A stretch of DNA of 64,000 nucleotides from Actinobacteria bacterium UBA4426 (GTDB lineage: Bacteria; Actinomycetota; Actinomycetes; S36-B12): the NCBI GenBank assembly GCA_002390705.1, contig DGQA01000005.1, forward strand, positions 162,791 to 226,790, written 5' to 3'. This document shows, one piece after another, positions 6,044 through 57,955 of the stretch (its first letter is position 1; every line of letters starts with the position of its first letter). The notes under the pieces are model-generated. The model made no database searches and was not told the DNA's origin. It saw nothing but the letters and a program-made list of their open reading frames with translations. The translations under genes and the position numbers were made by a program.

Positions 6044-7144
6044 ATGAGTGGCCCTAAAACAGTTGTCTTTGATTCACGCAACGTGTGGCGAACCAGTTTC
6101 ATAGTTCTCGCCGTAGTCGCGATTGCCCTGCTCCTAAAATTTCTCCTCGAAGACGGCGGCAGCGTAATTTTTATTGTCCTAATGGCTTGGTTTGCTTCTA
6201 TAGCAATAGAGCCTGCCGTCGGTCGTCTTGCGCGACACATGAAGCGTGGGTTGGCAACAGCCCTTGTAATGCTTTCAATCCTTATTTTCTTTATTGTCTT
6301 TGGCGCGACTTTTGGTAATCTGCTCTTCAACCAAATTGCGGACTTGCTGCGCAGCCTTCCCGGACTACTCGATAGCGCACTTGTTTGGTTTAACGAACGT
6401 ACTAATTCTAGTTATGAAATCAATGATCTTTGGGAACAATTCAACATCACTCCTTCAGACTCAGCTCAATATGCAGCCACCGTTTTACAGGGTGTTCTAG
6501 GTCTACTTGGCTCAGTTGCGCTCGGATTCTTTGGCCTATTCACATTTGGTCTTTTTACTTTTTATCTTTCCGCAGACGCCCTCAGGTTTCGTCGCTATAT
6601 CCGTTCGCTATTCACTCCAAAGTTTCAGCCTCTTGCCGAGCAAGTGTGGGGAATCACGGCTGATAAAACCGGGAACTATGTTGCAGCGCGCCTGCTTCTG
6701 GCGTTTATTAATGGTGGGACTAGCGCCATAGTTTTTTACGCCATCGGTATGCCATCTTGGCTGGCACTGGGCATTTGGACTGGACTCGTAGCCCAATTCG
6801 TTCCCACAATCGGCACCTATATTGCAATCGTTTTGCCCGTTCTTGTGGGCCTACTCAGCGGGAATCCTTGGATTGGGGTCATCGCACTAATTTGGGCAGT
6901 TCTTTATCAACAGGTGGAAAACCTCACGATTGAGCCAAAAATCAGCGCCCGTGCGGTCAATGTGCACCCGGCAGTGGCATTCGCATCGGTTATGCTTGGC
7001 GCTAGCCTGTTCGGAGTCGCTGGAGCCCTGATCGCCGTTCCGGTTGTCGCAATGGCCATTAGCCTGATCGAAGTCCGACAACTGCGACATGAAATACCCA
7101 ACGAAGAACCCGAAGTGGGGATCGAATCCGAACAAGAAATGTAA
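6044..7144 (+). CDS. AI-2E family transporter (PerM/UPF0118)
   Basis: About 8 TM segments. The conserved core LVAQFVPTIGTYIAIV...YQQVENLTIEPKI is present. Confidence 0.8.
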   Translation: MSGPKTVVFDSRNVWRTSFIVLAVVAIALLLKFLLEDGGSVIFIVLMAWFASIAIEPAVGRLARHMKRGLATALVMLSILIFFIVFGATFGNLLFNQIADLLRSLPGLLDSALVWFNERTNSSYEINDLWEQFNITPSDSAQYAATVLQGVLGLLGSVALGFFGLFTFGLFTFYLSADALRFRRYIRSLFTPKFQPLAEQVWGITADKTGNYVAARLLLAFINGGTSAIVFYAIGMPSWLALGIWTGLVAQFVPTIGTYIAIVLPVLVGLLSGNPWIGVIALIWAVLYQQVENLTIEPKISARAVNVHPAVAFASVMLGASLFGVAGALIAVPVVAMAISLIEVRQLRHEIPNEEPEVGIESEQEM

Positions 7145-7164
7145 TCCACCCGAAAGAAGGACTC

Positions 7165-7920
7165 ATGAACATCACCGATCACAGCTTGCGCCGCTGGAAT
7201 GTGATTGCTGGACTTGCTCACACAGTTCAGCTAGTAATCATTCTTATTTTGGCCAACGACTTCACTCTCCCTATAACCGCGACCTACCTTGAAGGCCCTC
7301 CTGGAACCACACCCAGTGACACGATCACCCTCTTTGATTCCCCAATCGCGTGGGGAGTCGCTTTATTCTTCGCACTCTCAGCTTTCTTCCACTTCTTGGT
7401 TGCAAGCCCTCTGTACTTCACAAAATATATTGCCGGATTGAACCTGCAACGCAACTACTTCCGATGGGTTGAGTACTCCATTAGTTCTTCGGTCATGATC
7501 GTGTTGATTGCGCAAATCACCGGTATCGCGGACGTTGCAGCCCTCATCGCCATCTTTGGTGTCAATTCATCGATGATTCTTTTCGGTTGGCTCCAAGAGA
7601 AGTACGAGCAGCCTGGGAGCGGCGGCTTACTGCCTTTTGTGTTCGGTTGTATTACTGGAATCGTGCCGTGGATTGTAGTAGCGGTTTATGTAATAGCCCC
7701 AGGATCAACATCTGGTGCGGAAACACCAATCTTTGTCTACGGAATAATTGTGTCGCTCTTCCTCTTCTTCAACTCATTTGCTTTAGTCCAATACCTTCAA
7801 TACAAGCAGGTAGGCAAATGGGCCGACTACCGTTACGGCGAGCGCGCCTACATTTTCCTTAGCTTGATCGCCAAAAGTATTCTGGCCTGGCAGATCTTCG
7901 CGGGGACATTAGCTTCATAG
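7165..7920 (+). CDS. heliorhodopsin (retinal-binding 7TM photoreceptor, inverted topology family)
   Basis: Seven hydrophobic segments. K237 lies in the last helix (SLIAKSILAWQ) and E103 in helix 3 (RWVEYSISSSVMIVLIAQ); His19 and His76 are also present. Long near-verbatim strings match heliorhodopsin 48C12 as I remember it: FGVNSSMILFGWLQEKY, YVIAPGSTS, FLFFNSFALVQYLQYK. Confidence 0.9.
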   Translation: MNITDHSLRRWNVIAGLAHTVQLVIILILANDFTLPITATYLEGPPGTTPSDTITLFDSPIAWGVALFFALSAFFHFLVASPLYFTKYIAGLNLQRNYFRWVEYSISSSVMIVLIAQITGIADVAALIAIFGVNSSMILFGWLQEKYEQPGSGGLLPFVFGCITGIVPWIVVAVYVIAPGSTSGAETPIFVYGIIVSLFLFFNSFALVQYLQYKQVGKWADYRYGERAYIFLSLIAKSILAWQIFAGTLAS

Positions 7921-7980
7921 CGTGAAGTCCAGACCTGCGAAATTGTTGTAGTTTCTCAGATCTGGGCACATCCAGGTCCG

Positions 7981-10283: not shown

Positions 10284-10544
10284 TCATGTCGTATTTAGCC
10301 GATCCTTAGCCACCAGAACGACATAATCTTGGGATCTCAGCGCCATGACGAGGGCAATAATCCAACCGATGATGGTCCAGCCAGCCAGTAGGTTAACCCA
10401 AAACACTCCCCAATGTTTGACATCACGAAATGTGGCAATTGCCCAAGGCAGCATGTAGAGGCTCGATGCGATGGCGACAATCAGAGCTACGATCTTGGTT
10501 ACTGTCCAGGATTTACCGGCTGGCTCAATCGAATAAGTATTCAT
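10284..10544 (-). CDS. small membrane protein, superinfection-immunity (Imm)-like family
   Basis: VNLLAGWTIIGWIIALVMAL motif and two TM segments. The start was moved to the ATG at 10544, which is preceded by AAGGAG. Confidence 0.55.
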   Translation of the reverse strand: MNTYSIEPAGKSWTVTKIVALIVAIASSLYMLPWAIATFRDVKHWGVFWVNLLAGWTIIGWIIALVMALRSQDYVVLVAKDRLNTT

Positions 10545-11420: not shown

Positions 11421-12473
11421 CTACTTCGCGAAAGCCTCAATCGTCAATGTCTTTGCACTGACCCAAATGGGTGTTCCCACGCTGAGCTGTAAATCTGCCA
11501 ATGCCAAGTGAGTGATTGTGGCAATGACAGGCGGGGAAGCATCAATACTGACCCGGATTCGGTCGTGCATTGGCGTGAGTGCGCGAACACTTCCTTGCCA
11601 CACGTTCCGGGCGCTGCCTTCGGGCCTCAACAAGTGAAGGGTGACGGCTTCGGGCCTGAGAACGGCAAGGGCTTCTCCACGCAGATCCACCTGTGGCACG
11701 CTCAGTACGCCCCCGCCTTCCACTTGCAATACGCCCTGGTTCGCTACCCCACGAATCAGATTCACACCCATCAAAGTAGCTACATAATCAGTTTCGGGCC
11801 TCGCCGCCAGTTCACTGGGAGTTCCTTCCTGGGTAATGGACCCGTCTTCTAAAACAACAACCCGGTCGGCCAGCAACATCGCATCGAGTGGATCGTGCGT
11901 GACGAAAATTACGCATCCATCAAATCCGTCAATTTGCTTTTCCAGTTCGGTTCGCACGCTTTCCTTTGTTTGGGCATCGAGTGCTGCAAGTGGTTCATCA
12001 AGCAATAGAACACTGGGTTCGATAGCCAATGCTCGAGCCAAAGCCACCCGCTGGGCTTGACCACCCGAAATTTGATTTGGCTTTCGATGCCCCAATTCAG
12101 TGATCCCCAAAGACTCCAACTGCGATTGTGCTCGCACTTGGGAGACCTTCTTCGATGAGCCTAAAGACCGAGGGCCAAAAGCAATATTTTCCATCACACT
12201 GAGGTGGGGAAAAAGTGCGTAGTCTTGAAAAACCACACCCACGGATCGCCCTTGTGGCGCAACATGAACTGATGGAGTTTTGTTGACGACTTGGTTACCA
12301 AAGACAATTGCTCCCGAGTCAATACCTTGTAACCCGGCGAGAACACGAAGTAGCGTCGACTTACCGGATCCATTCGGTCCAAGAACGGCGGTAACAGTCC
12401 CTGCCGAAAAGATCGTGTCAATACTAAGTCTGAAGCTATTCCGGATAGCAGAAAAGTTTGCAGTGATTTTCAT
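11421..12473 (-). CDS. modC: molybdate ABC transporter ATP-binding protein
   Basis: Walker A GPNGSGKST, the signature ISGGQAQR, and a C-terminal TOBE-like tail. It is the last gene of the modABC arrangement. Confidence 0.8.
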   Translation of the reverse strand: MKITANFSAIRNSFRLSIDTIFSAGTVTAVLGPNGSGKSTLLRVLAGLQGIDSGAIVFGNQVVNKTPSVHVAPQGRSVGVVFQDYALFPHLSVMENIAFGPRSLGSSKKVSQVRAQSQLESLGITELGHRKPNQISGGQAQRVALARALAIEPSVLLLDEPLAALDAQTKESVRTELEKQIDGFDGCVIFVTHDPLDAMLLADRVVVLEDGSITQEGTPSELAARPETDYVATLMGVNLIRGVANQGVLQVEGGGVLSVPQVDLRGEALAVLRPEAVTLHLLRPEGSARNVWQGSVRALTPMHDRIRVSIDASPPVIATITHLALADLQLSVGTPIWVSAKTLTIEAFAK

Positions 12474-13261
12474 GAGGCCCTCGTCTGTAGATACTTACCT
12501 CGCAGGGCTACCAGTACACCAACGCTGACAACAAGTAGCACCATGGAGAGCGCGATGGCTACTGAGCGATCAGACTCAAGTGCGGTGTACACGGCCAGTG
12601 GCATAGTTTGAGTAACACCGGGAAAATTTCCCGCAAATGTAATTGTGGCGCCAAATTCACCCAGAGCCCGAGCCCAGCACAGAACGAGTCCGGCAATTGC
12701 GGCAGGCGCAACCATGGGCATGGTAATTCGCAAGAAAACTCGCCGCGAGCCGGCGCCCAATGTTGCTGCGGCATCCTCATAGCGTTGGTGTAACGAGCGG
12801 AAACCACCTTCCATCGTGATTACCAAAAAAGGCATCGCCACGAAAGTCGTCGCAATTACAACTCCCACAGTCGTAAATGGAAAGGTAATTCCAAGGGTGT
12901 CATAAAGGAACGCGCCAACCAGTCCACGACGGCCAAGCGCTTCCAGCAGTGCAACACCGGAGACAACGGGGGGCAACAACAGGGGAACAATCACCAAAGC
13001 CCGCAACAACCCAGTAAATGGCAGAATTTCGCGAGCCAACAACCAAGCCATCGGTATCCCGAAAAGTGCAGCAAATGCGGTCGCGACCAGTGAAGTTACG
13101 AGTGAAAGCCTCAATGCTTCCAGAGCCTCCGGAGATGAAATAATTTTAGGAAATGCTTCCCATGGAGTCTGGACAATCAACGCAATGAGTGGAATTACCA
13201 AGAACAGTAATGCGACTAAACCGGGCATCAAAAGAAACAGGGGTGCGCGTTGATTCCTCAC
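12470..13261 (-). CDS. modB: molybdate ABC transporter permease
   Basis: ModB-type string TITFAGNFPGVTQTMPLAVY. A 4-nt overlap with modC. Confidence 0.85.
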   Translation of the reverse strand: MRNQRAPLFLLMPGLVALLFLVIPLIALIVQTPWEAFPKIISSPEALEALRLSLVTSLVATAFAALFGIPMAWLLAREILPFTGLLRALVIVPLLLPPVVSGVALLEALGRRGLVGAFLYDTLGITFPFTTVGVVIATTFVAMPFLVITMEGGFRSLHQRYEDAAATLGAGSRRVFLRITMPMVAPAAIAGLVLCWARALGEFGATITFAGNFPGVTQTMPLAVYTALESDRSVAIALSMVLLVVSVGVLVALRGKYLQTRAS

Positions 13262-13266
13262 TTCAG

Positions 13267-14037
13267 CTACCAGGGCTTAGCGAAACCAAATGCACGCATG
13301 ATTCCTTGCGAGGTGGTGCTAAAGCGAACAAAATTAACGAATCTTTGCGCCAACTGTTGTTCTCTGGTGTCAGCGACCATAGAAATATGGTAGGTCGCTA
13401 CGACATTATCGCGAAATGGAATCTGCACGAACTCAACCCTGTTCTCGGCTGACTTGACGTCGGTGACATACACAATCCCAGCGTCAAGGTCACCGGAAAT
13501 AACTTTAGCCAGAACGGATCGGACATCTAGTTCACGCGTGACAGCAGTAACGTCGAGTGTATTTTTGGTGAATAGTTCCACTGCCGCGCTCCCACACGGG
13601 ACTGCTGTGTCACACACCCCAAGAAGCAATCCGTCCCGTTGTAAATCGGATATCTTTGAGATATTGGCTGGATTTCCTAAGGGCACAGCGATAGTCAAAA
13701 AATTCTTGGTAAAGCGAAGTGGTCGCGCAACCAATTCTGAATCAATGCCAATTTGAATTGTCGACTTCGACGCGGTGGCGATCACGTCAACCGGGGCACC
13801 AGCAATTACTTGATTCATGAGTGTCGAGCTACCCGCAAAGTTGAGCTTTATTTCGGTATCGGGGTACCGTTTCTCAAAAGCGTCGGCTATCACCGGGAAA
13901 ACATCAGTCAGTGACGCCGCCGCTGAAACCGTCAGAGTTCCACTTGGTTTTGGAGCCGCCCCAGATGCACTAGGGAAGAATGCACCTAACCCAACTACAA
14001 AAGCAATTGCCACAAATCCGTGCAACATTTTGGTCAT
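13267..14037 (-). CDS. modA: molybdate ABC transporter substrate-binding protein
   Basis: Signal peptide present. ModA pattern LTVSAAASLTDVF...NFAGSSTL...PVDVIATA. Confidence 0.85.
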   Translation of the reverse strand: MTKMLHGFVAIAFVVGLGAFFPSASGAAPKPSGTLTVSAAASLTDVFPVIADAFEKRYPDTEIKLNFAGSSTLMNQVIAGAPVDVIATASKSTIQIGIDSELVARPLRFTKNFLTIAVPLGNPANISKISDLQRDGLLLGVCDTAVPCGSAAVELFTKNTLDVTAVTRELDVRSVLAKVISGDLDAGIVYVTDVKSAENRVEFVQIPFRDNVVATYHISMVADTREQQLAQRFVNFVRFSTTSQGIMRAFGFAKPW

Positions 14038-14429
14038 GAATTCTGCTCCAACTCGATAACCACATTGGTTGATTTAACAACCCCCGTAGCGCGTACCCCC
14101 GGTGCCAATCCGAGTTCATCCGCGGACTCACGACTTAATAATGACGTGACCCGATGCGGGCCAGCTTGGATTTCAATCAACGCCATCACGCCATCTTTTT
14201 CAACCCGAGTAACGATTCCAGGGAACCTATTTCGAGCTGAGGCGTGCACGACTGTCTCTTCCAGTCTCGATGCGGCCGACATGTAGAGGGCGAGGCTTTC
14301 TGCGCTTACGGTTCTAGGGCCATTACCCCGCGTGCCTGAACTCAGTTTGCCAATTTCAATCCACCGACGGACCGTGTCGTCCGAGACCCCGAGCATAGAG
14401 GCGGCATCAGAGATCCGTATTTCAGCCAT
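14034..14429 (-). CDS. MerR/excisionase-type HTH + TOBE (molybdate-binding) regulator
   Basis: The N-terminal HTH is ISDAASMLGVSDDTVRRWIE and the C-terminal half is TOBE-like. The ATG at 14429 was preferred over the TTG at 14498. A 4-nt overlap with modA. Confidence 0.7.
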   Translation of the reverse strand: MAEIRISDAASMLGVSDDTVRRWIEIGKLSSGTRGNGPRTVSAESLALYMSAASRLEETVVHASARNRFPGIVTRVEKDGVMALIEIQAGPHRVTSLLSRESADELGLAPGVRATGVVKSTNVVIELEQNS

Positions 14430-14455
14430 AATGGAGTTAATGTAGCAGTATGTGA

Positions 14456-14465
14456 GCATTAATGC
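14456..14465. promoter_or_regulatory. 10-bp palindrome gcattaatgc upstream of the mod regulator/modABC operon (possible operator)
   Basis: Perfect palindrome read in the sequence, about 27 nt upstream of the ATG at 14429. Function is inferred only. Confidence 0.2.
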
Positions 14466-14535
14466 ACGTTTTTTCTCAGATTTTGCGGTTTTCTGCAACG
14501 TTTTCGCTGAAGGTAGCTGAGGTGAAAGTGATCAA

Positions 14536-27219: not shown

Positions 27220-27604
27220 GCAGTCACACTATCTTCCCAGCGGTCGCGAGCCAGCTAAAAATTCACCATCAAAATCAGGTCGCCGTGCCACAGGATCATT
27301 CTCGCATTCACAAATGATTCCTGAAATCACGAGCGACGACACCTCTCGGAGCAATGTTTTACGTGATCCCAATCACGGGCCCACTTCTTACGCCATTCGA
27401 ATGGCAACCCGCAGATAACACATATTTTGGGTGAAAATCCGTTTTTTTTCTGTGCTTTACGAACCACAAGAAAAGAATACCCCTCCCCTTGTGATTGCAC
27501 TGTCCCCGCACTTCGGGTTCCTTAATTGGCTTCCCTCCAGCGCTAAATGGGCCAACATCCGTGTTCGCGTGGTGCACTGGCTGTCCAGGGGCCACACTTC
27601 TCCC

Positions 27605-28624
27605 ATGGCGGTTGCGCACACTCATCTCCGACGACTACCGGGACTCTCGCTGAACCCTCGGCTCATTATTCTCAACATGGGACCAATCTTTGTGTGGTGC
27701 ACAGTAGTTGCGAGCCTGTTGACTCAGGTAACAGCATCTTCAATAAATATCGGACCCCTTCCCGCTCTCCTCGCTCTCGTCGCTTTGGCTATTGGCATCC
27801 CGCACGGTGCTGCGGACAACCTGACCATGGTGCACTCACTGAACTGGCAGGGATGGGTTCGTCTTGCCGTGACCTATCTATCGATTGCCGGTGCTGCCGC
27901 GTTTTTAATAATCGCGGTACCGACAATTGGTTTTATTCTCGTTCTCGCCATGACCGTGTGGCATTTCGGCACGGGCGATGTTGAAGCAACTCAGGAACTC
28001 CAAGGCCGAGCACCCATTGCAGGTAAGTTTCGAGTCCTCTACGCACTAGCTCTGGGGAGTGCCCCCGTGCTACTTCCGCTTACTTCTCCGGCTGCATTGA
28101 GCACCGTCGTTTCACTTGAGCCGCGACTAGCGGCGATTTACTCCAGCCAGGTTACAACCATCACTCGAGCCATAGTTCTGACGTTAATTGTCGGCACAGT
28201 GGTGGCGCTGATTGATCGGGGTGATCTTCGTGGGGCTTTCGAGCTTTTCACGTTGGCGATCCTGGGACTTGTCCTGTCGCCTCTGATTGCATTTGCCATC
28301 TACTTTAGTGTTTGGCATGCCGCGCGACACACCGCTCGATTGGCTTTAGTAACTTCCGGGACCGTCTCAATTCGTTCGCTCGCCCGCGTGACGAAAGTGG
28401 GTATGCCATCCCTCGTCGGCTTCATTGTAATACTCACTGGAGTCACAGTATTTTTTGGGTCGGAGGCGTTCACAGGAACTGTTTTATGGATCGCACTCGC
28501 TCTTGTGTGGGGCCTGACCGTGCCGCACATGTGGTTCGTGACGCGTTTTGATAACCGAATTCGAGCTGAGCGAAGTCACGTAACTCAGGTGGATTCTTTC
28601 ACTCCTGTGACAACAATTAAATAG
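27605..28624 (+). CDS. blh: Brp/Blh family beta-carotene 15,15'-dioxygenase (retinal-forming)
   Basis: The four His motifs of Blh are present in order: GIPHGAADN, VWHFGTGD, SVWHAARH, LTVPHMW. The protein is multi-TM. Candidate starts are 27605 or 27677; the ORF-track start at 27431 looks over-extended. Confidence 0.8.
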   Translation: MAVAHTHLRRLPGLSLNPRLIILNMGPIFVWCTVVASLLTQVTASSINIGPLPALLALVALAIGIPHGAADNLTMVHSLNWQGWVRLAVTYLSIAGAAAFLIIAVPTIGFILVLAMTVWHFGTGDVEATQELQGRAPIAGKFRVLYALALGSAPVLLPLTSPAALSTVVSLEPRLAAIYSSQVTTITRAIVLTLIVGTVVALIDRGDLRGAFELFTLAILGLVLSPLIAFAIYFSVWHAARHTARLALVTSGTVSIRSLARVTKVGMPSLVGFIVILTGVTVFFGSEAFTGTVLWIALALVWGLTVPHMWFVTRFDNRIRAERSHVTQVDSFTPVTTIK

Positions 28625-35093: not shown

Positions 35094-35906
35094 ATGCGAT
35101 TACTTCAGAGTTTCGTTAGGGCTGCACATCCGCTGCCCACAATCGCCGTTTCGCTGGTCATCACCGCATTTGCGTGGAGTCTTGGTTGGACCGGCTGGCT
35201 ACTGGTCACCGTATTCGCAGCGATTCTCATTGGCCAGTTATCGGTTGGTTGGAGCAACGACGCCTTCGACGCATCTTTAGATGCCCGCGTGGGGCGCGCG
35301 AGTAAACCTACGGTGGCGCTAACCGTGTCAGCCGGCGCACTATGGATCGCCGCAGTTTCCGCACTGATCATTGCAATCCTGCTCAGTTGGGCGGTCGCGG
35401 GTTGGTTGGGTGGTTCATTCCACGTATTCGCGATCCTGATGGCTTGGCTCTATAACATTCGCCTCTCCCGCACCGTGTGGTCCTGGCTCCCGTACGCATT
35501 GGCTTTCGGCGCAATGCCAGCCTTCCTTTCTTTTGGATTGAATGATGAACCCCCGACCGTTTGGGCTGTAGCCGTATTCGCAATCATCGGAGTGAGCGCC
35601 CACCTGGCAAACGCATTGCCAGATGCCGACTCTGATGCTGGAGCAGGGGTGGGTGGAATCGTGGTTCGTTTAGGGAACCGTAGATCCGTGCTTTTGTGTT
35701 GGCTCCTACTCGCACTTGGCAGCGGGGTCTTGGTTGTCGTCAGCTTCTTCGCGAGTACATGGCTGCCTCTTCTCATTGCCGGTGCATTCGTCTCAGCTGT
35801 GATCCTAGGCTCGCGTGGGAACCACCGAGCCGGAATGTTTCATGCACTGATCGCAATGGTGGGCGTTGACGTTGCCGCATTGGTATTTGTCACCGCAATC
35901 GGCTAG
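35094..35906 (+). CDS. UbiA family aromatic prenyltransferase
   Basis: About 8 TM segments. Asp-rich motifs WSNDAFDASLD and ANALPDADSD are present. Confidence 0.75.
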   Translation: MRLLQSFVRAAHPLPTIAVSLVITAFAWSLGWTGWLLVTVFAAILIGQLSVGWSNDAFDASLDARVGRASKPTVALTVSAGALWIAAVSALIIAILLSWAVAGWLGGSFHVFAILMAWLYNIRLSRTVWSWLPYALAFGAMPAFLSFGLNDEPPTVWAVAVFAIIGVSAHLANALPDADSDAGAGVGGIVVRLGNRRSVLLCWLLLALGSGVLVVVSFFASTWLPLLIAGAFVSAVILGSRGNHRAGMFHALIAMVGVDVAALVFVTAIG

Positions 35907-36922
35907 GCGGCTAAGGAGTCCACTATCCGGTTGAAGACTCGTGGCATTGCCCGCGCCGCGGGAACGATCATGGGGCGCAGTCCACGACGAGAGGACGCCC
36001 ACAGTAATCCGCCGGTCATTAAACGGTAGGACCTTGTCACTTTCTGCCACTCGTGCTCATAGCGCTCTGGTTCGTCAGTGAGAACAGCGTTCACTGCTGC
36101 TTCGGCTTCGGCAAAACCCAACCGCAAACCTTCACCGGTCAGTGCATCGATGTAACCGGACGCATCACCGACCAACAGTGCCCGATCGGCCGAACGCGCG
36201 CTCACCCGCTGAAGCAGTGGGCCGGCTCCGCGCAGATCACTCACTCTCGGTACGGAGTCGAGTCGCGCAGCGAGCTCGGGAACTCGTGCAATCGAATCAT
36301 CAAGGTTAAGGACAGATCGACCAAGAACGGCAACGCCAACCGTATCGGCACTGATCGGTGTGACATAGATTTCAGAATCTTCCAGCCAGTACACCTCAAC
36401 TAAATCGCTCCACGGCCTGACACCAAAGTGTTGGCGAATACCGAAACGTTGCGCACCCGATGTAACTTCTCCGAGCCCAAGGAGCCTTCGCACATTGGAG
36501 TGCAATCCGTCAGCACCGACGAGGTAACGGGCCCGAATCCCTCCCGCTTCTATCCAGCCATTCCCTTGACAGATCGCACTCACTCGACCGGTGACTATTT
36601 CGACTCCAAGCTCCAGTGCTCGCTCTTGTAACGCGGCGTGTAGGGCAAGGCGCCGCACTCCTCGACCTGGCCCCGAACGGAACCGTGCCTGGGCAACCCT
36701 TCCTTTGGAGATGTAACGGATTCCATGAAAGTCTTGACCGATCGGATCGACGCCAACTGCGCGTAGCCGCGACAGCGCATCGGGCATTAAACCCTCCCCG
36801 CACGCTTTATCGATCGGTCCAGGGCGCTGTTCAACCACAGCAACTTCAAGCCCACTGAGGCGCGCGCGGACAGCAGTCATCAGGCCGACCGGTCCACCTC
36901 CTGCAACAACTAGGTCAATCAT
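35903..36922 (-). CDS. FAD-dependent oxidoreductase (geranylgeranyl-reductase / aromatic hydroxylase-like)
   Basis: N-terminal dinucleotide fold MIDLVVAGGGPVGLMTA, with DKACGEGL and GDASGYIDALTGEG motifs. Confidence 0.75.
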   Translation of the reverse strand: MIDLVVAGGGPVGLMTAVRARLSGLEVAVVEQRPGPIDKACGEGLMPDALSRLRAVGVDPIGQDFHGIRYISKGRVAQARFRSGPGRGVRRLALHAALQERALELGVEIVTGRVSAICQGNGWIEAGGIRARYLVGADGLHSNVRRLLGLGEVTSGAQRFGIRQHFGVRPWSDLVEVYWLEDSEIYVTPISADTVGVAVLGRSVLNLDDSIARVPELAARLDSVPRVSDLRGAGPLLQRVSARSADRALLVGDASGYIDALTGEGLRLGFAEAEAAVNAVLTDEPERYEHEWQKVTRSYRLMTGGLLWASSRRGLRPMIVPAARAMPRVFNRIVDSLAA

Positions 36923-37440
36923 TTGGGAAGTGTCCCAAGTGCCGCGTTTTCAACCCGAATTCGCACGGCCAGCAGTGGCAGATTTAATGCGGTAAACACG
37001 ATCGCGGTGACCCATGCGAAGCCGACCATGGGCAACGCGATTCCCTCGATCACAACGGCGACGTAGTTTGGGTGGCTTAACCAACGGTAGGGGCCTCCCA
37101 CAGCACGTGGAAGTCCCGGAACAATCACGACGAGCGTGTTCCACCGCCGACCCAGAGTTGTAATGCACCACCATCGAAGTGCTTGCGAACCCAGAACCAA
37201 TGCACACATGGTCCACGCGAAAGCAGGATTGATGGGTTTTTGCCACACCCACACTTCAACAAGTGCACCAACAAGCAAAAAGACATGCAGGGCCACCATG
37301 TATGGGTAATGGGACCTGCCAAATTCAATACCTCCATGTTCCGCGCTCCAACGAAGGTTTCGTTTTGATACGACAAGTTCGATGACTCGCTCCACTGCCA
37401 CGAGTGCAATCAGGATCGTGAAAAGGATCATTGCTGTCAT
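36919..37440 (-). CDS. isoprenylcysteine carboxyl methyltransferase (ICMT)-family membrane methyltransferase
   Basis: 173 aa with 4-5 TM segments and RWLSHPNYVAVVIEGIALP. A 4-nt overlap with the FAD oxidoreductase gene. Confidence 0.75.
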   Translation of the reverse strand: MTAMILFTILIALVAVERVIELVVSKRNLRWSAEHGGIEFGRSHYPYMVALHVFLLVGALVEVWVWQKPINPAFAWTMCALVLGSQALRWWCITTLGRRWNTLVVIVPGLPRAVGGPYRWLSHPNYVAVVIEGIALPMVGFAWVTAIVFTALNLPLLAVRIRVENAALGTLPK

Positions 37441-37474
37441 CGGGTCACCATTACTGTCATCGAGTCACCATTGC
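37431..37474. repeat. 20-nt tandem duplication (x2.2) spanning the PKS stop / methyltransferase start junction
   Basis: ttgctgtcatcgggtcacca (37431-37450) and ttactgtcatcgagtcacca (37451-37470), then ttgc. There are two mismatches between copies. Each copy carries a cat (ATG) and a tca (TGA). Confidence 0.85.
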
Positions 37475-38631
37475 AGTAAAACTAATTCAGCGCAGAAACC
37501 TGGGCCCATAGCAGTCAGCATTCCGGGGGTTTCTGGTTCGGGGACCAACCCACCCGAGCCATAAAGAGTGTCGCACAAAACATGCAGAACCGAAGCAGAG
37601 GACAGGTTTCCGATCGCTGCAAGTGAGCGCCAAGTAACGTCGAGCTGACCGTCGTGCAGGTCAAGCGCCGACTCCATTGCTTCCAGCACTCGAGGTCCAC
37701 CCGGGTGACACACCCAATGCTTGATATCGGCGATCTTCAGGTCGTGGTCACCGAGAAAGTCGCTGACGTCGTCTCCGAGGTATTGATTAATAATGTCGGC
37801 TACACCGGCCGAAAGCACAATGCGAAAACCACTCCCGCCAATGTCCCAGCCCATGGTTCGCTCCGTGTCGGGGTACAACCGACTGCGAGAAGCCACAACT
37901 CTGGGTCCGGTAATCCCCATGCGGGCCGCCCGGTGTGCCCCAACCATGACAACGGCTGCGGAACCGTCACCGAACAAGCCACTTGCCACGATATTGGACA
38001 TTGACACGTCATCGCGTTGCACAGTCAGTGAACACAACTCAACTGACAATAAAACTGCTACGTCATCAGGATGACCCATGAGGTAGTCGTGCAGCCGTGC
38101 AATGCCAGCAGCGCCTGCCACGCAGCCAAGACCAAATATCGGGACCCGCTTTACATCTTCACGCAGCCCGAGTCTTGGAATAAGTCTTGCTTCAAGGGAT
38201 GGCGCAGCAATGCCCGTAACCGATGTGGACATGATCATGTCCACGTCAGTTGCCTCCAAGTTCGCGACGGCCAGTGCTCCTGCAATAGCGGAAGCACCCA
38301 GATCAAGTCCAACCCGGATGAACTGGTCGTTAGCTGCACCGAAGCCTGCGAGGGTGGCGTAATCCTTTAATGGGATCGCTAGGTTTCGATTCTTGACCCC
38401 GGTAGCGATATGAATACGTTCGACGATTTGTTGATGTGCCCCTTCGGGAGACACCACGGCGGTGAACGCCTCGATGATCTCTTCCTGCGAATACCCGTAG
38501 GGTCCGACCACGGCGTGGGCACCGGCAATAAAGCTCATACGATCATGGTATGTGCCAATCGCCCATTGCGAAAGCCGCGCACAGTGCGGCGACACACCCT
38601 CATCAACAGGGTGGTGGTGCATAAGGGTCAA
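37465..38631 (-). CDS. type III polyketide synthase (chalcone-synthase superfamily)
   Basis: The Cys-His-Asn triad contexts are present: FGLGCVAGAAG, WVCHPGGPRVL, IGNLSSASVL. The TTG at 38631 has AAGGG upstream; an alternative ATG lies at 38538. Confidence 0.9.
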   Translation of the reverse strand: MTLMHHHPVDEGVSPHCARLSQWAIGTYHDRMSFIAGAHAVVGPYGYSQEEIIEAFTAVVSPEGAHQQIVERIHIATGVKNRNLAIPLKDYATLAGFGAANDQFIRVGLDLGASAIAGALAVANLEATDVDMIMSTSVTGIAAPSLEARLIPRLGLREDVKRVPIFGLGCVAGAAGIARLHDYLMGHPDDVAVLLSVELCSLTVQRDDVSMSNIVASGLFGDGSAAVVMVGAHRAARMGITGPRVVASRSRLYPDTERTMGWDIGGSGFRIVLSAGVADIINQYLGDDVSDFLGDHDLKIADIKHWVCHPGGPRVLEAMESALDLHDGQLDVTWRSLAAIGNLSSASVLHVLCDTLYGSGGLVPEPETPGMLTAMGPGFCAELVLLQW

Positions 38632-41936: not shown

Positions 41937-43136
41937 TTACACGCGTTCGAACACCGCGGCCAAAGCCTGCCCTCCACCAATGCACATGGTGACAAGGCCT
42001 CGTTCCAGATCTCGACTTTGAAGGTCATGCAGCATTTTGATCGTTAAAATCGTTCCCGTTGCTCCCACCGGATGACCTAAGGCAATAGCTCCACCATTGG
42101 GATTAGTGCGCTCTGGGTCCAACCCAGAATCACGAACAACAGCAATGACTTGAGCGGCAAAGGCTTCATTTAATTCAACAACATCTAAATCCTTAACCGA
42201 CATACCTAACCGATCCAGCAATATTCTGATGGCGCCTACCGGGGCATAACCCATCATTGCAGGGTCGCAACCGTGACTCGCCCAGCCAACCAAACGGCCC
42301 AGTGGAATCATCCCACGTTCTCGTGCATCAACTTCACGCATTAACACCGTGGCCGCTCCTGCATCATTGATGCCGGAAGAGTTACCCGCGGTAACTGTGC
42401 CTTCTGCAGAAAATGAAGGACGCAGTCGAGAAAGACCCTCAAAAGTAGTATTTGGGCGAGGATGCTCGTCGGCACCAACGCTTTCGGCCTGACCCTTCGC
42501 TTTTTCCACTTCCACCGAGATAATTTCAGATGTGAATGCGCCGCGTGAGATGGCGTCTGCTGCTCGCTGTTGACTTCGTGCAGCCCACTGATCCTGTTCG
42601 GCACGATTTACGTTATATGCCCGGGCAACATTTTCAGCTGTATGTCCCATGAGGTAGTCGCCCCACGGATCTGTCACTAACGAAAGTGTCCCATCAACCA
42701 ACACTCGATTCCCTAATTTAGCCCCTGATCTCGCCTGTGGTTCGAGAAAAGGCTGCCCGCTCATATTCTCATTTCCACCGGCAACCACTACGTTTGACTG
42801 TCCGAGCTGGAGTTGCATCGCACCTGACAAGATCGCTTGAAGGCCACTTCCGCACAGGCGATTTACGTTGTACGCTGCGGCTGACAGTGGTATTCCAGCA
42901 TCGATAAGCACCCGGCGTGCGTTGTACGCCTCGGGGCCGACTTGCCCAATACAACCCATGATCACTTCATCAACGTCCTCGGGGTCGACTCCCGCTCTCC
43001 AAATTGCCGCCTGCACAGCAAGGCTTCCTAGGCGGTAGGTGGGTGTCGAAGATAAACCACCCATATACCCACCGATTGGCGTCCGGGCGCCCGAGACCAC
43101 GACAATTGAATCTGACAAGACGTCCCGATTGTTCAT
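41937..43136 (-). CDS. acetyl-CoA C-acyltransferase (thiolase)
   Basis: NRLCGSGLQA active-site Cys, GHPVGATG and CIGGGQA motifs. The ATG at 43136 was preferred over the TTG at 43169. Confidence 0.88.
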   Translation of the reverse strand: MNNRDVLSDSIVVVSGARTPIGGYMGGLSSTPTYRLGSLAVQAAIWRAGVDPEDVDEVIMGCIGQVGPEAYNARRVLIDAGIPLSAAAYNVNRLCGSGLQAILSGAMQLQLGQSNVVVAGGNENMSGQPFLEPQARSGAKLGNRVLVDGTLSLVTDPWGDYLMGHTAENVARAYNVNRAEQDQWAARSQQRAADAISRGAFTSEIISVEVEKAKGQAESVGADEHPRPNTTFEGLSRLRPSFSAEGTVTAGNSSGINDAGAATVLMREVDARERGMIPLGRLVGWASHGCDPAMMGYAPVGAIRILLDRLGMSVKDLDVVELNEAFAAQVIAVVRDSGLDPERTNPNGGAIALGHPVGATGTILTIKMLHDLQSRDLERGLVTMCIGGGQALAAVFERV

Positions 43137-43179
43137 CTGTGTGCTTTCCCTGGCCACTGTGTGTCGCAAGTTTCTCGAG

Positions 43180-43971
43180 TCACTTCTCGAGCCCTAGTAT
43201 TCGGGCAAGATTTCCGCCAAGTATTTTCTTTTCGTCATCTTTGGGCAGTCCTAGCGCCCGAATTCCGGCGATTTCTGCGCCCGGGTCTGCCATGGGCCAG
43301 TCTGAACCAAAAACCACTTGGTCCGCGCCGTGGCGCTTTATGATGCCGCGGATCCGGTCAGGATCCAGAATAGCCATTGTCGGTGGCCACGATGTCTCAA
43401 GAATTACACGTGAACCGACAACGATCTTTTCAGCCAGCTCTAGTTGGTGATAGGCCCCGTAATGACACGCCATCAGAGTGAGATTGGGTACCGACTGGGC
43501 GAGTGCAAGCACTTTTTCAGGACTACCCCTGTCTGTGGCAGCCGCATCGCTACCTTCCCCTGCATGAGTTATTACGACAATGCCATCTTGAGCTATCGCG
43601 TGACAGATTTCAATCACACGCGGATCGGCTAGGTCCAGGTTCTGAAAGTTTGGGTGCAATTTCACGCCGACGATTTCATTCTCTCGAAGTGAACGTATGT
43701 TATCCGCCACTGTTCGATCTGGATGTATTGTTCCAAACGGCACCAGCCTGGAGCGATCAAGGCTCCCAATGAACTCGTTCGTCTTCTCGAGATTCTTGGC
43801 TGCTGTGGCTACCCCGAGGCAACACCCATAGTCGATTCCGGCTTCGTCCATCTTTGCCAGGAGAGAACCAACTGTTCCATCTCCCATAGGTTCAAGGCCG
43901 GCTATCTTTGCGCTCAGGACTTTCGGTGCGATTTCGTCAGGCCACACATGGCAGTGGCTGTCAATTATCAA
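43180..43971 (-). CDS. amidohydrolase family protein (amidohydrolase_2 / TIM-barrel metal hydrolase)
   Basis: IIDSHCHVWPDE N-terminus and ITHAGEG motif. A 4-nt overlap with the upstream ACAD. Confidence 0.75.
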   Translation of the reverse strand: MIIDSHCHVWPDEIAPKVLSAKIAGLEPMGDGTVGSLLAKMDEAGIDYGCCLGVATAAKNLEKTNEFIGSLDRSRLVPFGTIHPDRTVADNIRSLRENEIVGVKLHPNFQNLDLADPRVIEICHAIAQDGIVVITHAGEGSDAAATDRGSPEKVLALAQSVPNLTLMACHYGAYHQLELAEKIVVGSRVILETSWPPTMAILDPDRIRGIIKRHGADQVVFGSDWPMADPGAEIAGIRALGLPKDDEKKILGGNLARILGLEK

Positions 43972-45122
43972 CCGGTTACTCGCTTGACGAGTTGTTTCGC
44001 CAAGGAATCGTAAATAACTTCTGTTGCACCTTCATATATGCGCAGCGGTCTGGCTTCCCGATACAAACGCTCTATTTTTGATCCGCGAACAATGCCAAAA
44101 CGACCCATTATTTGAACGGCGCGGTCGACGACCCGGCCGGACATCTCTGTTGCTCCGGCTTTTGCCAAAGAGGAAAGGTAAAGGTTGGCGCGCGCATCTC
44201 TCGCCGAGGCGGCGGCGGCTCGGTACGTTAACGCTCGAGCCATTTCAATCTCAGCCCACGAGTTAGCCAACTGTGCAGGAATTCCACCCAGTCGTGCCAG
44301 AGGAACGCCAAATTGTTCACGACCGGCAGCATGCTTGGTTGCTTCATCTAATGCCGCTTGCGCGATACCAATGGCGGCTCCAGCTACCGAAACGCGAAAT
44401 GTAGACAATGTCGCAAGAACAAGGTTAAAACCCTTGCCGGGCTCCCCAATCCGATGACTGCTGGGGACCATTACATCTTTCATGATTACGTCTCCCAGAA
44501 CGTGAGGCGCAATGATTTGGTGTGGGTGGCTGACTGAAAGCCCTGGGGTACTCGCTGGAATCAGGACTAACGAATAGGCGATCTCACCACCCACAGTCTC
44601 CTTTCCCAACATCGTGTAAAAGTCTGCATCACCCGCATTCGTTATAAAAGACTTGTGCCCATTGATGCGAAGGAGATCTCCTTCGACCTCAATTGTGGTC
44701 GTGATAGCTCGCAGATCAGAGCCCACATCAGGTTCGGTGAGGCCCAAAGCTGCGATGGATTCCAGTCGCCCAACTGCCGGCAACCATGCTTCTTGCAATG
44801 CGGGGCTACCGGCTTGAGCTAGCGCATAAGAGCCGATCCCTTGCATACAAAACATCGAGTCCACGTGCGCTGATTCGTAGGCCAACTGCTCTCTGACAAC
44901 AGTGACTGCAAGAGAGTCAACTTCTTCGAACCTTCCCCCAAATTTTTTTGGGACAGTCAGGCTGCACAGCCCACTTTCTGCCAAGATCTGCCGGACATTG
45001 GGATCAAAATGATCGGCTTCGTCTGCGTGATGCGCATACGGCGCGACCTGTTGAGCAACCTTTTTCGCCTCCTCAATAATTGCCAAGTAACTTTCGGGGA
45101 GTTCAAAGAGTTGTTCAGTCAC
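43968..45122 (-). CDS. acyl-CoA dehydrogenase
   Basis: 384-aa ACAD pattern with the canonical C-terminal RIYEGATEV. Confidence 0.88.
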   Translation of the reverse strand: MTEQLFELPESYLAIIEEAKKVAQQVAPYAHHADEADHFDPNVRQILAESGLCSLTVPKKFGGRFEEVDSLAVTVVREQLAYESAHVDSMFCMQGIGSYALAQAGSPALQEAWLPAVGRLESIAALGLTEPDVGSDLRAITTTIEVEGDLLRINGHKSFITNAGDADFYTMLGKETVGGEIAYSLVLIPASTPGLSVSHPHQIIAPHVLGDVIMKDVMVPSSHRIGEPGKGFNLVLATLSTFRVSVAGAAIGIAQAALDEATKHAAGREQFGVPLARLGGIPAQLANSWAEIEMARALTYRAAAASARDARANLYLSSLAKAGATEMSGRVVDRAVQIMGRFGIVRGSKIERLYREARPLRIYEGATEVIYDSLAKQLVKRVTG

Positions 45123-45140
45123 CGCGAGACTCCTGTATCA

Positions 45141-46310
45141 CTATGAGGATCGTTGATTAATTGTTTTGCCGTAAATTTCGGATGCGATGCGGATTCGTTG
45201 CATTGCAGGTGTGCCGCCGGCAATGGCCCACCCGTGCGAATCGCGATGTAGTCTTTCAATCCCGTATTCTTCCGTATAGCCATTGCCACCATGAAGTTGC
45301 ATCGCCATGTCCGTGACCCTCTTTGCCATCTCGTTGGAATAGACCTTGGCTAAAGAAACTTCATAGGTATCAGGTAATCCATTTCCCGCGGTCAGTGCAG
45401 CTCTCTTGATCAAAAGTCTCGCTGCTTCGACATCTATTGCCATGTCGGCCACGCTTTGTTGAACATTTTGGAACTCGTAAATTGGTCGACCAAACTGTTC
45501 CCGCTCCTGCGTGTAGGCAATTGTTTTTTCCAAAGCAGCCTGTCCTAGGGCCAGACTCATTGTTGCATTTCCCATTCGTTCAATTGAGAATACGCCAAAT
45601 AATTTCTTGAACCCGCCTGCCGAGATCACGAGGTTTTCTTTTGGCACCCGCGCATCTTCGAAGATGAGATCCGCCGAAGCGATGCCACGGAAACCCATCA
45701 GCTTTTCCGGGGCCCCGAAACTCAGTCCCGGGGTGTCCGCCGAGACAAGAATGGCGCCAATCGCTTTGGAACCCGGTGAATCGTTTAACCGACAATAAAG
45801 AAGATAGTTTCCCGCATGGCCACCCCCGGAGATCCAGCGTTTCGTGCCATTAATTACGTATTCATCCCCGTCAAGTCGAGCGGAAGTGCGCATGTCGGTC
45901 GCTCCGGAACCCGCGTCTGGCTCTGAGATGCCAATTCCCACACTTGTCTGACCTGACACAACTTTAGGTATAATCGCTTCACACTGGGCGGGCGTGCCGT
46001 AAAACTGGAGGACCCGCACCGGTCCAACGTTTGCCTCAAAGACCTCAAAAGCCGCTGGGCGGCACACTTTAGCCAATTCTTCAATGACAATCAGCGCATC
46101 CATCAGTGGGGCATCAGAACCCCCATACTCCTCGGGCAGGCAGATACCCAGAAAACCCAGTTCAGCCAGTCGCTTTATCTCCGCATCCGGAAATAAGGTT
46201 CTTGTGGCATCCCACTCGTCGGCTAGTGGGGCATACACATCGTTGGCCACTTCCCGGGCAACAGCTCGAAGCGCCGTTTGCTCAGGAGTTAGTGATGCAC
46301 TTTCACTCAC
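45141..46310 (-). CDS. acyl-CoA dehydrogenase (isovaleryl-CoA-DH-like base placement)
   Basis: 389 aa. The C-terminal WAIAGGTPAMQ has no Glu there, and a Glu sits in FSIERMGNATMSLALGQAA. Confidence 0.88.
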   Translation of the reverse strand: MSESASLTPEQTALRAVAREVANDVYAPLADEWDATRTLFPDAEIKRLAELGFLGICLPEEYGGSDAPLMDALIVIEELAKVCRPAAFEVFEANVGPVRVLQFYGTPAQCEAIIPKVVSGQTSVGIGISEPDAGSGATDMRTSARLDGDEYVINGTKRWISGGGHAGNYLLYCRLNDSPGSKAIGAILVSADTPGLSFGAPEKLMGFRGIASADLIFEDARVPKENLVISAGGFKKLFGVFSIERMGNATMSLALGQAALEKTIAYTQEREQFGRPIYEFQNVQQSVADMAIDVEAARLLIKRAALTAGNGLPDTYEVSLAKVYSNEMAKRVTDMAMQLHGGNGYTEEYGIERLHRDSHGWAIAGGTPAMQRIRIASEIYGKTINQRSS

Positions 46311-46408
46311 GTTATCTCCTTAATAAATAATCTATGATCACCATAGCAAGGAATTATCAAGGCTGCCACTAGGGTTAGGTTATTGATCGAAATACTTTGA
46401 GGAGCGAC

Positions 46409-47161
46409 GTGGAAAAGCTGTTTGATTTACGTGGCAAAGTGGCTCTCGTCACGGGGGGCAGTCGAGGACTCGGTAGGGTCATGGCCGAAGGATTTGCCCA
46501 TCATGGGGCAGATGTGGTGATTGCCAGTCGCAAATTAGAAGCGTGCGAAGAAGTGGCCTCCAGCATTCGCCAGTCCACTGGACGCCGCGCTATAGGGGTT
46601 GGAGCGCACGTAGGGCGATGGCCTGAACTTGACCAATTAGTTGAGACTTGCTACCAGGAATTCGGGTCAATCGATATTTTAGTGAACAACGCGGGCATGT
46701 CGCCTATATACGACACGGTTGATTCGGTAACCGAGGAACTTTTTGACAAGGTGCTCGACGTCAATCTCAAGGGGCCGTTTCGATTAGCCGCTCTCGTTGG
46801 GACACGGATGGCGGCCCTCAATGGAGGCAGTATTATCAATATTTCCAGCGTCGGAGCGATCCATCCGCGCCCCTCAACTTTGCCATACGCCGCAGCAAAG
46901 GCCGGCCTCAACGCCATTACCGTCGGCCTTGCCCATGCCTTTGGCCCGACAGTTCGGGTAAATGCAATCATGGCGGGTACCTTTATGACTGATGTGAGCT
47001 CTGCTTGGGACCCCGACATGTTTGCACAGCGAGCACGTGGTTTCGCATTGGAACGTGGGGGACAACCTGACGAAATCTTAGGATCGGCCCTTTACTTGGC
47101 TAGCGAGGCGTCAAGTTACACAACCGGATCACTTTTGACGGTCGACGGCGGCCAGCCATAG
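46409..47161 (+). CDS. SDR family oxidoreductase (FabG-like)
   Basis: VALVTGGSRGLG and YAAAKAG motifs. The GTG at 46409 is preceded by GAGGAG; the ORF-track TTG is at 46397. Confidence 0.85.
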   Translation: MEKLFDLRGKVALVTGGSRGLGRVMAEGFAHHGADVVIASRKLEACEEVASSIRQSTGRRAIGVGAHVGRWPELDQLVETCYQEFGSIDILVNNAGMSPIYDTVDSVTEELFDKVLDVNLKGPFRLAALVGTRMAALNGGSIINISSVGAIHPRPSTLPYAAAKAGLNAITVGLAHAFGPTVRVNAIMAGTFMTDVSSAWDPDMFAQRARGFALERGGQPDEILGSALYLASEASSYTTGSLLTVDGGQP

Positions 47162-47169
47162 GCAAAAAA

Positions 47170-48378
47170 CTATCTGCTGATCACACCGCTCTGCGCCAAG
47201 AACTGTATTCGGTCCTCGTCAAATCCAAGGAAATCCCGTAACACTTCTTTAGTGTGCTGGCCAATTTCCGGAACTCCGTCGTACTCGGGACCCGAATACG
47301 AGGACACATGCAAGATCGGGCCGGGCATTTTGACCTTGCCAAGGAGGTCACTCCCGGTCAAATCAACCAGAGTTCGCTCGGAAAAGTGGGGGTCTTCGGT
47401 GACGTCACGGGCATCGTTTACTCCCGCCGCGACGACGTTGTGGCTTTCCAAAATTGCAAGAATCTCCTTGCGAGGCTGGGTCTGAACCCACTCTGACACA
47501 ATTTTTTGCATGTCCTCGTTATGTTCCATACGGGCAGCATTGGTGGCGTATCGCGGGTCCTTAATAATGTCCGGACGGTCCATTGCCTCAAAAAGTCGCA
47601 CCGCAATTGTCTGAGATGACGCGGCAATCGAAAGCCACTTCCCGTCCTTCGCTTGAAAAATTCCTCGCGGAGAGGCAGAGCCGGTCCCATTTCCCACTCT
47701 TTCTTGGATCGCTCCGTTACCCGTCCACTGCAAGATGATGTCGCCAATTATAAACATTAGGGGTTCATACAGCGCGACATCCACGACATCTCCGACCCCT
47801 GTGCGGCCGCGATTAAACAGAGCCATGGCGGTTCCGAATGCGGCCGAAATCCCGGCTATGGAATCAGCAAATCCAAACGGGGGCGAGGTGGGTGGCGTCG
47901 AGGGCCACCCATTGATGTAGGCGTACCCGCTGGAAGTTTCCGCCACCGTTCCAAAGCCGGGACGTTCACTATACGGACCGGTCTGGCCGAATCCCGAGAC
48001 TCTCGTCATGACTACCCCAGGATTTAGTGAACTCAAAATGTCGTAACCCAGCCCCCAAGCCTCCATGCGCCCGGGTCGAAACGATTCGAGAACGACATCC
48101 ACGTGTGGTACAAGGTCATGCACAATTTCTCTCCCGTCTTCGGATCTCAGATCAATACCGAGCGAGCGTTTGCCTGAATTCAACCGAGAAAACCCGAGCG
48201 ACAAGCCATTTTTAAAGGGGGACCATTGACGCGCAAAATCGCCTGCCACGGGGTCTTCCACTTTAATAACCGTTGCACCGAAGTCCCGCATCATCCGCCC
48301 ACATGTCGGCGCCGCGTACATGGAACTTAGCTCAAGAACAGTAACTCCATGGAGTGGACCTTTGGCATCATTTTCCAT
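47170..48378 (-). CDS. CaiB/BaiF family (class III) CoA-transferase
   Basis: VTVLELSSMYAAPTCGRMMRDFGATVIKVE. The ATG at 48378 forms a TGATG overlap with the ALDH stop. Confidence 0.85.
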   Translation of the reverse strand: MENDAKGPLHGVTVLELSSMYAAPTCGRMMRDFGATVIKVEDPVAGDFARQWSPFKNGLSLGFSRLNSGKRSLGIDLRSEDGREIVHDLVPHVDVVLESFRPGRMEAWGLGYDILSSLNPGVVMTRVSGFGQTGPYSERPGFGTVAETSSGYAYINGWPSTPPTSPPFGFADSIAGISAAFGTAMALFNRGRTGVGDVVDVALYEPLMFIIGDIILQWTGNGAIQERVGNGTGSASPRGIFQAKDGKWLSIAASSQTIAVRLFEAMDRPDIIKDPRYATNAARMEHNEDMQKIVSEWVQTQPRKEILAILESHNVVAAGVNDARDVTEDPHFSERTLVDLTGSDLLGKVKMPGPILHVSSYSGPEYDGVPEIGQHTKEVLRDFLGFDEDRIQFLAQSGVISR

Positions 48379-49856: not shown

Positions 49857-49899
49857 GACTAACACCTTTCCCTGTAGTGAACTGTCTCTGAATTTTGGT

Positions 49900-51066: not shown

Positions 51067-51105
51067 TTGCTTCTCCTTGATCCCTACTCGGGTTGTTGAC
51101 TCGAA

Positions 51106-52740: not shown

Positions 52741-52781
52741 TTGGACCCGACTTCATATAAATTCACTTACTGCGACCCCAC

Positions 52782-53801: not shown

Positions 53802-54065
53802 TATTAATTCCTTCCGTGCATTTGAGAATTGAGATTTAGATAAATCATCTTGTTACGAGTGGACCCTTTATCGGACTCATTACGGCTAGCTAATGCCAAT
53901 TCTCGGGATCCACTGGCGTGCAGTGGAGTTGAAGTGACTTTTGCCTGCTGGCTTACCTCCTTGACCCACAAACAGCAAATTCATAACAATGATGATCCTA
54001 GAATACAAAGTCTACTGTGTCTTGCGATAACTGCCCCAATCTGCGTTGGCTCTTGTCGGTAGCGA

Positions 54066-54566: not shown

Positions 54567-54569
54567 TTT

Positions 54570-55094: not shown

Positions 55095-55209
55095 TATGTA
55101 TTCCTCTCCCTGCTTTTAATCTATGATATTGGTAGGTATAGATTCACACATGTTAAACCGCAAAATTACACCAAAATTATTCGTTCAAGTACCCACAACA
55201 GGAGAAACA

Positions 55210-56391: not shown

Positions 56392-56406
56392 GCGATAGGA
56401 CGAAGA

Positions 56407-57941: not shown

Positions 57942-57955
57942 TGGCTCTGGCTACA

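Follow-up and report, generated by a model that had tools for sequence, protein, structure and literature searches.

Several heliorhodopsins (HeRs) have been described to which the gene considered here can be likened. The founding comparison is 48C12, from an actinobacterial fosmid of Lake Kinneret; TaHeR represents the archaeal Thermoplasmatales, and AbHeR comes from Actinobacteria bacterium IMCC26103, where the HeR gene shares an operon with genes for NAD+ synthetase and glutamine synthetase. Three HeRs are reported to act on a target in a light-dependent manner: AbHeR on glutamine synthetase (PMC9529153), TfHeR on photolyase (PMC9769723) and OcHeR on an ABC transporter (PMC11109279). The role of the family, which the initial annotation of the present DNA had called unsettled, has thus been given some content by these reports, but is still only partly understood. 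Here we analysed a stretch of 64,000 nucleotides from contig DGQA01000005.1 of Actinobacteria bacterium UBA4426 (the window). We conclude that it is virtually certain that the open reading frame (ORF) at 7165..7920 encodes a genuine subfamily-1 (48C12-type) HeR. The gene and the codons on which the argument turns are as follows.

7165..7920, forward strand: HeR coding sequence, ATG start, 251 residues plus stop.
7219..7221, forward strand: codon of His19, equivalent to H23 of 48C12.
7390-7392, forward strand: codon of His76, equivalent to H80 of 48C12 and partner of His19.
7471..7473, forward strand: codon GAG of Glu103, predicted single Schiff-base counterion, in transmembrane helix (TM) 3.
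7861-7863, forward strand: codon AGC of Ser233, four residues before Lys237.
7873..7875, forward strand: codon AAA of Lys237, predicted retinal Schiff-base lysine in TM7, forming SxxxK with Ser233.

The reading frame, both histidines, Glu103 (context FRWVEYSISS), Lys237 (context FLSLIAKSILAWQIF), the serine four residues before it and the Pro/Gly/Thr-rich loop LPITATYLEGPPGTTPSDTITLF, which spans residues 35-57, were all found at the positions given in the initial annotation.

Assignment to the family was provided by profile hidden Markov models. The Pfam model PF18761 matched with 328.1 bits (cutoff 26.7; E=3.7e-98) and was covered over its whole length (positions 1-242 of 242), and the NCBIfam equivalog NF038020, named 'heliorhodopsin HeR', matched with 340.2 bits (cutoff 100). 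In a search of all PDB chain sequences, the best matches were those of 48C12 (6su3/6su4, 6uh3 and 9ljj) with E ~4e-104, and TaHeR was recovered with E=9e-54. Given the E values obtained with Pfam and the PDB, the match lies far beyond chance. Residues 7-249 of the window HeR aligned to residues 11-253 of 48C12 without a single gap, at a constant offset of four, its N-terminus being four residues shorter than that of 48C12; 164 of the 243 aligned residues (67.5%) were identical. Identity to TaHeR was ~41%. That the protein is a HeR close to 48C12 had been proposed from sequence strings, and the profile search and pairwise alignments suggested as checks both bear the proposal out. The 48C12 strings listed for that purpose were all confirmed residue by residue against 6su3, 6uh3 and 9ljj. 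There is no evidence against the assignment to the HeR family.

The same alignment supported the functional residues. Lys237 falls on K241 of 48C12 and Glu103 on E107, in agreement with the retinal-lysine and counterion roles first ascribed to them, and Ser233 falls on S237; together with the histidine pair, all of these are identical in the two proteins. Identity extends to twenty further residues checked near the chromophore and in the region of the cytoplasmic cavity, among them, in 48C12 numbering, S76, N101, W105, Y108, S111, S112, M115 and N138, as well as E149, P172, W173, F206, Q213, E230 and W246. An alignment of 62 homologous sequences (A1) contained 79 invariant columns, among them those of H19, E103, S233 and K237, and H76 was conserved in at least 90% of sequences. 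The stretch S233-L-I-A-K237 constitutes the SxxxK motif, in which a serine occupies the place of the type-1 aspartate.

To compare folds, we used an AlphaFold2 model built on the alignment of 62 homologues (mean predicted local distance difference test score, pLDDT, 79.8; predicted TM-score, pTM, 0.78). The model has seven transmembrane helices (residues 5-29, 61-80, 98-118, 124-147, 156-177, 189-214 and 222-249), which coincide with the seven hydrophobic segments listed in the initial annotation, and a β-hairpin in extracellular loop 1 (strands 34-39 and 54-60). Comparison with crystal structures, another of the suggested checks, was equally favourable: Foldseek gave a TM-score of 0.93 to 48C12 (6su3/6su4; root-mean-square deviation 1.4-1.8 Å) and of 0.88 to TaHeR (6is6; a second TaHeR entry is 7u55).

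Type-1 microbial rhodopsins such as actinorhodopsin (for example 9hfk) likewise carry a retinal lysine in the last of seven helices, but the best of them reached TM-scores of only 0.59-0.69 at ~12% identity, and they carry DxxxK where the window HeR has SxxxK. A type-1 identity was rejected, PF18761 being the only model returned at E<=1, with no match to the bacteriorhodopsin model PF01036. The distribution of charges is likewise opposite to that of type-1 rhodopsins, pointing to an inverted topology. Ten of the eleven Lys/Arg residues are placed at the N-terminus or within or next to the loops joining helices 2-3, 4-5 and 6-7, the eleventh being Lys237 itself; those on the N-terminal face include K87, R96, R100, K146, K214, K218, R223 and R227. 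The opposite face has no Lys/Arg and five Asp/Glu. By the positive-inside rule, this computed distribution fits a cytoplasmic N-terminus and hence the predicted inverted topology.

Subfamily 1 is marked by five positions, I142, A168, P172, L202 and Q213 in 48C12 numbering (PMC9529153). Four of these are identical in the window HeR (I138, P168, L198 and Q209), the exception being A168, which is replaced by Thr164. Viral HeRs transport protons, the hallmark of V2HeR3 being E191 with W195 in helix 6 (PMC9448325), so that the earlier statement that no ion pumping has been detected fails for the family as a whole, but stands for the 48C12 subfamily. With the correspondence between V2HeR3 and 48C12 positions taken from published papers, E191 and W195 are replaced here by Leu198 and Phe202, a pattern shared with 48C12 and TaHeR, neither of which transports ions; because of this, no ion transport by the window HeR would be expected. 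A light-gated proton channel or pump resembling that of coccolithovirus V2HeR3 would be compatible with membership of the same protein family and with the presence of E226 (E230 of 48C12, E215 of V2HeR3). Against such a protein, the position of V2HeR3 E205 is occupied by Gln212, and the extracellular half of the closest relative, 48C12, which shows no transport, is hydrophobic. We rejected proton conduction on the hallmark positions, here Leu198 and Phe202, and regard it as highly improbable.

Substitutions relative to 48C12 were not spread evenly, but clustered in TM1, TM2 and the three cytoplasmic loops. In the loops, 13 of 32 residues (~41%) are identical to 48C12; in the helices lining the retinal pocket (TM3, TM4, TM6 and TM7), identity is 79-92%. 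In both AbHeR (PMC9529153) and OcHeR (PMC11109279), partners are bound through basic residues of the cytoplasmic loops, and divergence of the loops would be expected if partners differed from one lineage to another.

Such binding could serve the light-dependent regulation of a soluble enzyme encoded elsewhere, the candidates being the enzymes regulated by AbHeR (glutamine synthetase) and TfHeR (photolyase). By its published description, AbHeR resembles the window HeR in belonging to subfamily 1, in its freshwater actinobacterial host and in its basic cytoplasmic loops, through which it binds its enzyme (PMC9529153), and the window HeR presents the eight basic residues named above, K87 to R227, on the corresponding face. 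However, a scan of the window for all non-overlapping ORFs of at least 120 residues across the 64 kb returned no glutamine synthetase, photolyase or type-1 rhodopsin gene, nor the NAD+ synthetase gene of the AbHeR operon, so that the window HeR is not placed in the glutamine-synthetase group of HeRs. Moreover, the authors of PMC9529153 doubt that 48C12 binds the glutamine synthetase encoded near it, and the cytoplasmic loops here have diverged from those of 48C12 to the extent given above. We consider a soluble enzyme of this kind an unlikely target.

As to supply of the chromophore, the window contains a retinal-forming enzyme gene and, beside it, a small divergent gene.

27431..28624 (maximal ORF), forward strand: Brp/Blh-family β-carotene 15,15'-dioxygenase, retinal-forming (PF15461, E=2.2e-33).
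27327..27500, reverse strand: DUF2256 zinc-ribbon-like ORF of 57 residues (PF10013, 70.5 bits), divergent from Blh.

The Blh ORF, ~20 kb downstream of HeR, matched TIGR03753 with 135.6 bits (cutoff 95.25) over residues 114-370. Because the match begins at residue 114 and the 5′ extension of the maximal ORF overlaps the DUF2256 gene on the opposite strand, the true start of Blh is probably Met83 at 27677.

The mechanism that we propose is the following. The window HeR would bind all-trans retinal at Lys237, and this retinal could be supplied by Blh if the cell makes β-carotene. The pigment would absorb in the green, near 550 nm, and its retinal would isomerise to the 13-cis form, giving rise to a long-lived intermediate, of about a second, without movement of ions across the membrane. 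During this long-lived state, the basic cytoplasmic loops would alter the interaction of the HeR with one or more partner proteins. The protein would then act as a light sensor or regulator rather than as an energy converter. On balance, we lean towards such a non-transporting photosensor acting through partner binding. For the explanation as a whole our confidence is high, which is a compromise between the near-certain identity of the protein and its inferred mechanism.

Several points weigh against a sensor that works in this manner. The functional part of the proposal is transferred entirely from relatives, namely 48C12, TaHeR, AbHeR, TfHeR and OcHeR. In the ORF scans of the window, no gene for a glutamine synthetase, a photolyase or a heterodimeric ABC exporter adjoins HeR, and no carotenoid (crt) or β-carotene synthesis gene was found among the scanned ORFs. 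The gene context of related HeRs, examined in 80 loci from species-representative genomes whose ORFs were clustered by all-against-all BLAST, is heterogeneous and names no partner. No neighbour was universally conserved and, an AI-2E family transporter gene apart, no family was adjacent to HeR in more than 6 of the 80 loci. Those neighbours that recur share no theme: they include an ORF with weak partial UbiA and Abhydrolase_2 matches, a spermidine-synthase-like protein, a zinc alcohol dehydrogenase, GNAT, peptidase S51, DUF554, NfeD and pterin dehydratase. Finally, a preprint argues that HeRs are light harvesters with a carotenoid antenna (10.1101/2025.11.27.691015). The carotenoid motif that it describes at the lateral fenestration comprises two aromatic positions (162 and 206), two small ones (166 and 210), Gly169 and Asn207. 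This motif is intact in the window HeR and identical to that of 48C12 (F158, F202, C162, A206, G165 and N203), and in the alignment of 62 sequences each of the six is either invariant or conserved at 90% or more. Since the motif is intact, sensing may not be the whole story.

Taken further, these residues would make the window HeR mainly a two-chromophore light harvester, in which an exogenous xanthophyll held at the lateral fenestration passes energy to retinal. For HeRs, the case made in the preprint is based on comparison of structures and on docking rather than on measured energy transfer. It also leaves unsaid what the harvested energy would be used for, and a sensor role is compatible with it. 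We think it improbable that light harvesting is the main function.

The gene directly upstream of HeR provides the remaining alternative. Three features of the locus bear on it.

6044..7144, forward strand: AI-2E (PerM/TqsA-like) family transporter of 366 residues (PF01594, 188 bits), directly upstream of HeR.
7152..7161, forward strand: Shine-Dalgarno-like purine-rich sequence GAAAGAAGGA, read from the sequence, inside the gap between AI-2E and HeR.
7927..7967, no strand assigned: stem-loop, possible bidirectional terminator, in the 60-nt spacer between HeR and a gene for an APH-family kinase, with no T-run after it.

The AI-2E stop codon occupies 7142-7144 and the HeR ATG begins at 7165, leaving a gap of 20 nt between two genes on the same strand. 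A consensus scan of 5900-8200 returned no promoter-like or terminator-like site between the two genes. It gave no promoter upstream of HeR either, matches being no more frequent than in shuffled sequences, although a consensus of this type is uninformative for actinobacterial promoters. AI-2E was adjacent to HeR in 11 of the 80 loci, all of them from one close lineage (HeR identity 78-98%), and in 8 of these 11 the AI-2E stop overlapped the HeR start by 4 nt, an arrangement that suggests translational coupling. The pair was kept in all 11, but the genes around it change: upstream, NeuB and a glycosyltransferase (GT1) occur in some loci and are missing from others, and the downstream side can carry an insertion with an SbtA-like transporter and a P-II-like protein, or with other ORFs. 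We conclude that AI-2E and HeR are probably co-transcribed, in this lineage only.

In this setting HeR could be a light-regulating subunit of the AI-2E transporter, acting through its cytoplasmic loops or along the membrane surface. Besides the arrangement and retention of the gene pair, there is a precedent in OcHeR-OmrDE, where a HeR modulates a co-transcribed membrane transporter (PMC11109279). By description, the two loci are alike in the apparent co-transcription of a HeR gene with a membrane transporter gene, but differ in that the transporter there is an ABC multidrug exporter and here a secondary carrier of the AI-2E family. The neighbour also distinguishes this locus from that of 48C12, near which, at some distance, a glutamine synthetase gene is found instead. 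On the other hand, the adjacency is confined to a single close lineage that is otherwise syntenic and may reflect inherited gene order alone. None of the 69 remaining loci (HeR identity <=75%) had an AI-2E gene within 6 kb, and AI-2E is not among the ten frequent HeR neighbours tabulated by Kim et al. Among the papers searched, none named heliorhodopsin together with AI-2E. We therefore treat AI-2E as a doubtful partner, albeit the only candidate that the locus offers. A functional link of any sort between the two proteins is a slim possibility, and the more specific proposal, that in this lineage they form a translationally coupled two-gene operon in which HeR may gate or tune the transporter by light, is likewise a long shot. 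Regulation of AI-2E, regulation of a soluble enzyme and an added antenna are all compatible with the partner-binding photosensor that we favour; the first two would define what it acts on, and the antenna would bring in a further chromophore.

On the downstream side, the APH-family kinase gene and then an acyl-CoA dehydrogenase gene converge on HeR. The spacer region 7912-7992, which contains the stem-loop, folded as RNA with -25.5 kcal/mol (z = -2.85 against shuffled sequences), and the stem-loop was not called by the consensus terminator scan. In five close relatives, extra DNA was observed between HeR and the APH kinase gene (L003, 4040-4339; L004, 3147-4566; L005, 6750-8110; L006, 6753-8110; L010, 6312-7103), and the window and L001 have no insertion. 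The inserts of L004 and L006 encode a P-II-like protein and an SbtA-like (Sbt_1) bicarbonate-type transporter, and that of L003 a P-II-like ORF only; in those of L005 and L010, an SbtA-like gene is accompanied by a small ORF of another kind. The DNA downstream of HeR is therefore variable.

The HeR of the window was described initially as hidden in an ordinary-looking membrane ORF. This description does not hold, as the protein is neither hidden nor new. Among 8,000 candidates scored from a collection of 5.8 billion proteins, at least 7,449 matched at E<=1e-20, and the nearest relatives among the candidates scored were 99%, 88% and 87% identical. The exact 251-residue protein occurs in 116 blocks of the assembly collection, some of them from brackish and coastal metagenomes. 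The expectation that routine annotation would yield a hypothetical membrane protein proved right in part: it applies to older pipelines and to labels of the Joint Genome Institute (JGI), under which many relatives are called 'hypothetical protein', but several relatives are already named 'heliorhodopsin HeR' by NCBI, whose NF038020 model recognises the window protein well above its cutoff. The window HeR is thus an ordinary, already known member of a well-sampled clade.

The closest genomic loci are on metagenome-assembled genomes (MAGs) titled Candidatus Nanopelagicales or Actinomycetota, these being record titles and not a phylogeny. On these titles, the host is a Nanopelagicales-like planktonic actinobacterium, and hence monoderm, as is the rule for the family. 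All cultured Nanopelagicales isolates of one study encode both actinorhodopsin and HeR (PMC12817590), and every cultured member of the host order seems to have the HeR gene. HeRs of the actinobacterial type, 68-73% identical to that of the window, were also observed on lake MAG contigs with implausible titles, some of diderm lineages: L013, L019, L021, L022, L035 and L039 are titled 'Bifidobacterium breve', L030 'Gammaproteobacteria', and L038 and L074 'Rubrivirga'/'Rubricoccaceae'. Most likely, these titles are errors of taxonomy or binning and not exceptions to the monoderm restriction.

The remainder of the window contains other gene groups. The whole 64 kb yielded no Rfam family at the gathering threshold and no tRNA gene. 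A molybdate-type ABC transporter (binding protein, permease and TOBE-domain ATPase) with a ModE-like MerR/TOBE regulator occupies 11421..14498 on the reverse strand and is syntenic in close relatives. Between genes for an acyl-CoA dehydrogenase and an enoyl-CoA hydratase lies an ORF of 86 residues (10284..10544, reverse strand) with a superinfection-immunity domain (PF14373, 52.5 bits), which has also been annotated as a gene in four further assemblies. A compact cluster at 35094..38631 comprises a UbiA prenyltransferase (35094..35906, forward strand), an FAD monooxygenase (35903..36922, reverse strand), an ICMT-family methyltransferase (36919..37440, reverse strand) and a type III polyketide synthase (37465..38631, reverse strand); it resembles loci for phenolic lipids of the alkylresorcinol/alkylpyrone type or for prenylated quinones. 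Finally, 41937..58732 contains a β-oxidation-type run with two thiolases, three acyl-CoA dehydrogenases, three enoyl-CoA hydratases, a family III CoA-transferase, an aldehyde dehydrogenase, an acyl-CoA ligase, short-chain dehydrogenases/reductases and a luciferase-like monooxygenase, followed by a GntR/FCD regulator (59070..59840). The run has the appearance of an island for the catabolism of a lipid-like or steroid-like compound.

The main value of these results is the correct annotation of the gene, and this copy gives little new handle on the role of HeR in abundant planktonic actinobacteria. A possible exception is the lineage-specific AI-2E operon, which provides a candidate pair for interaction. 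If AI-2E and HeR did act together, this would add a class of partner unreported for HeRs, and would give a poorly understood family of transporters a member controlled by light.

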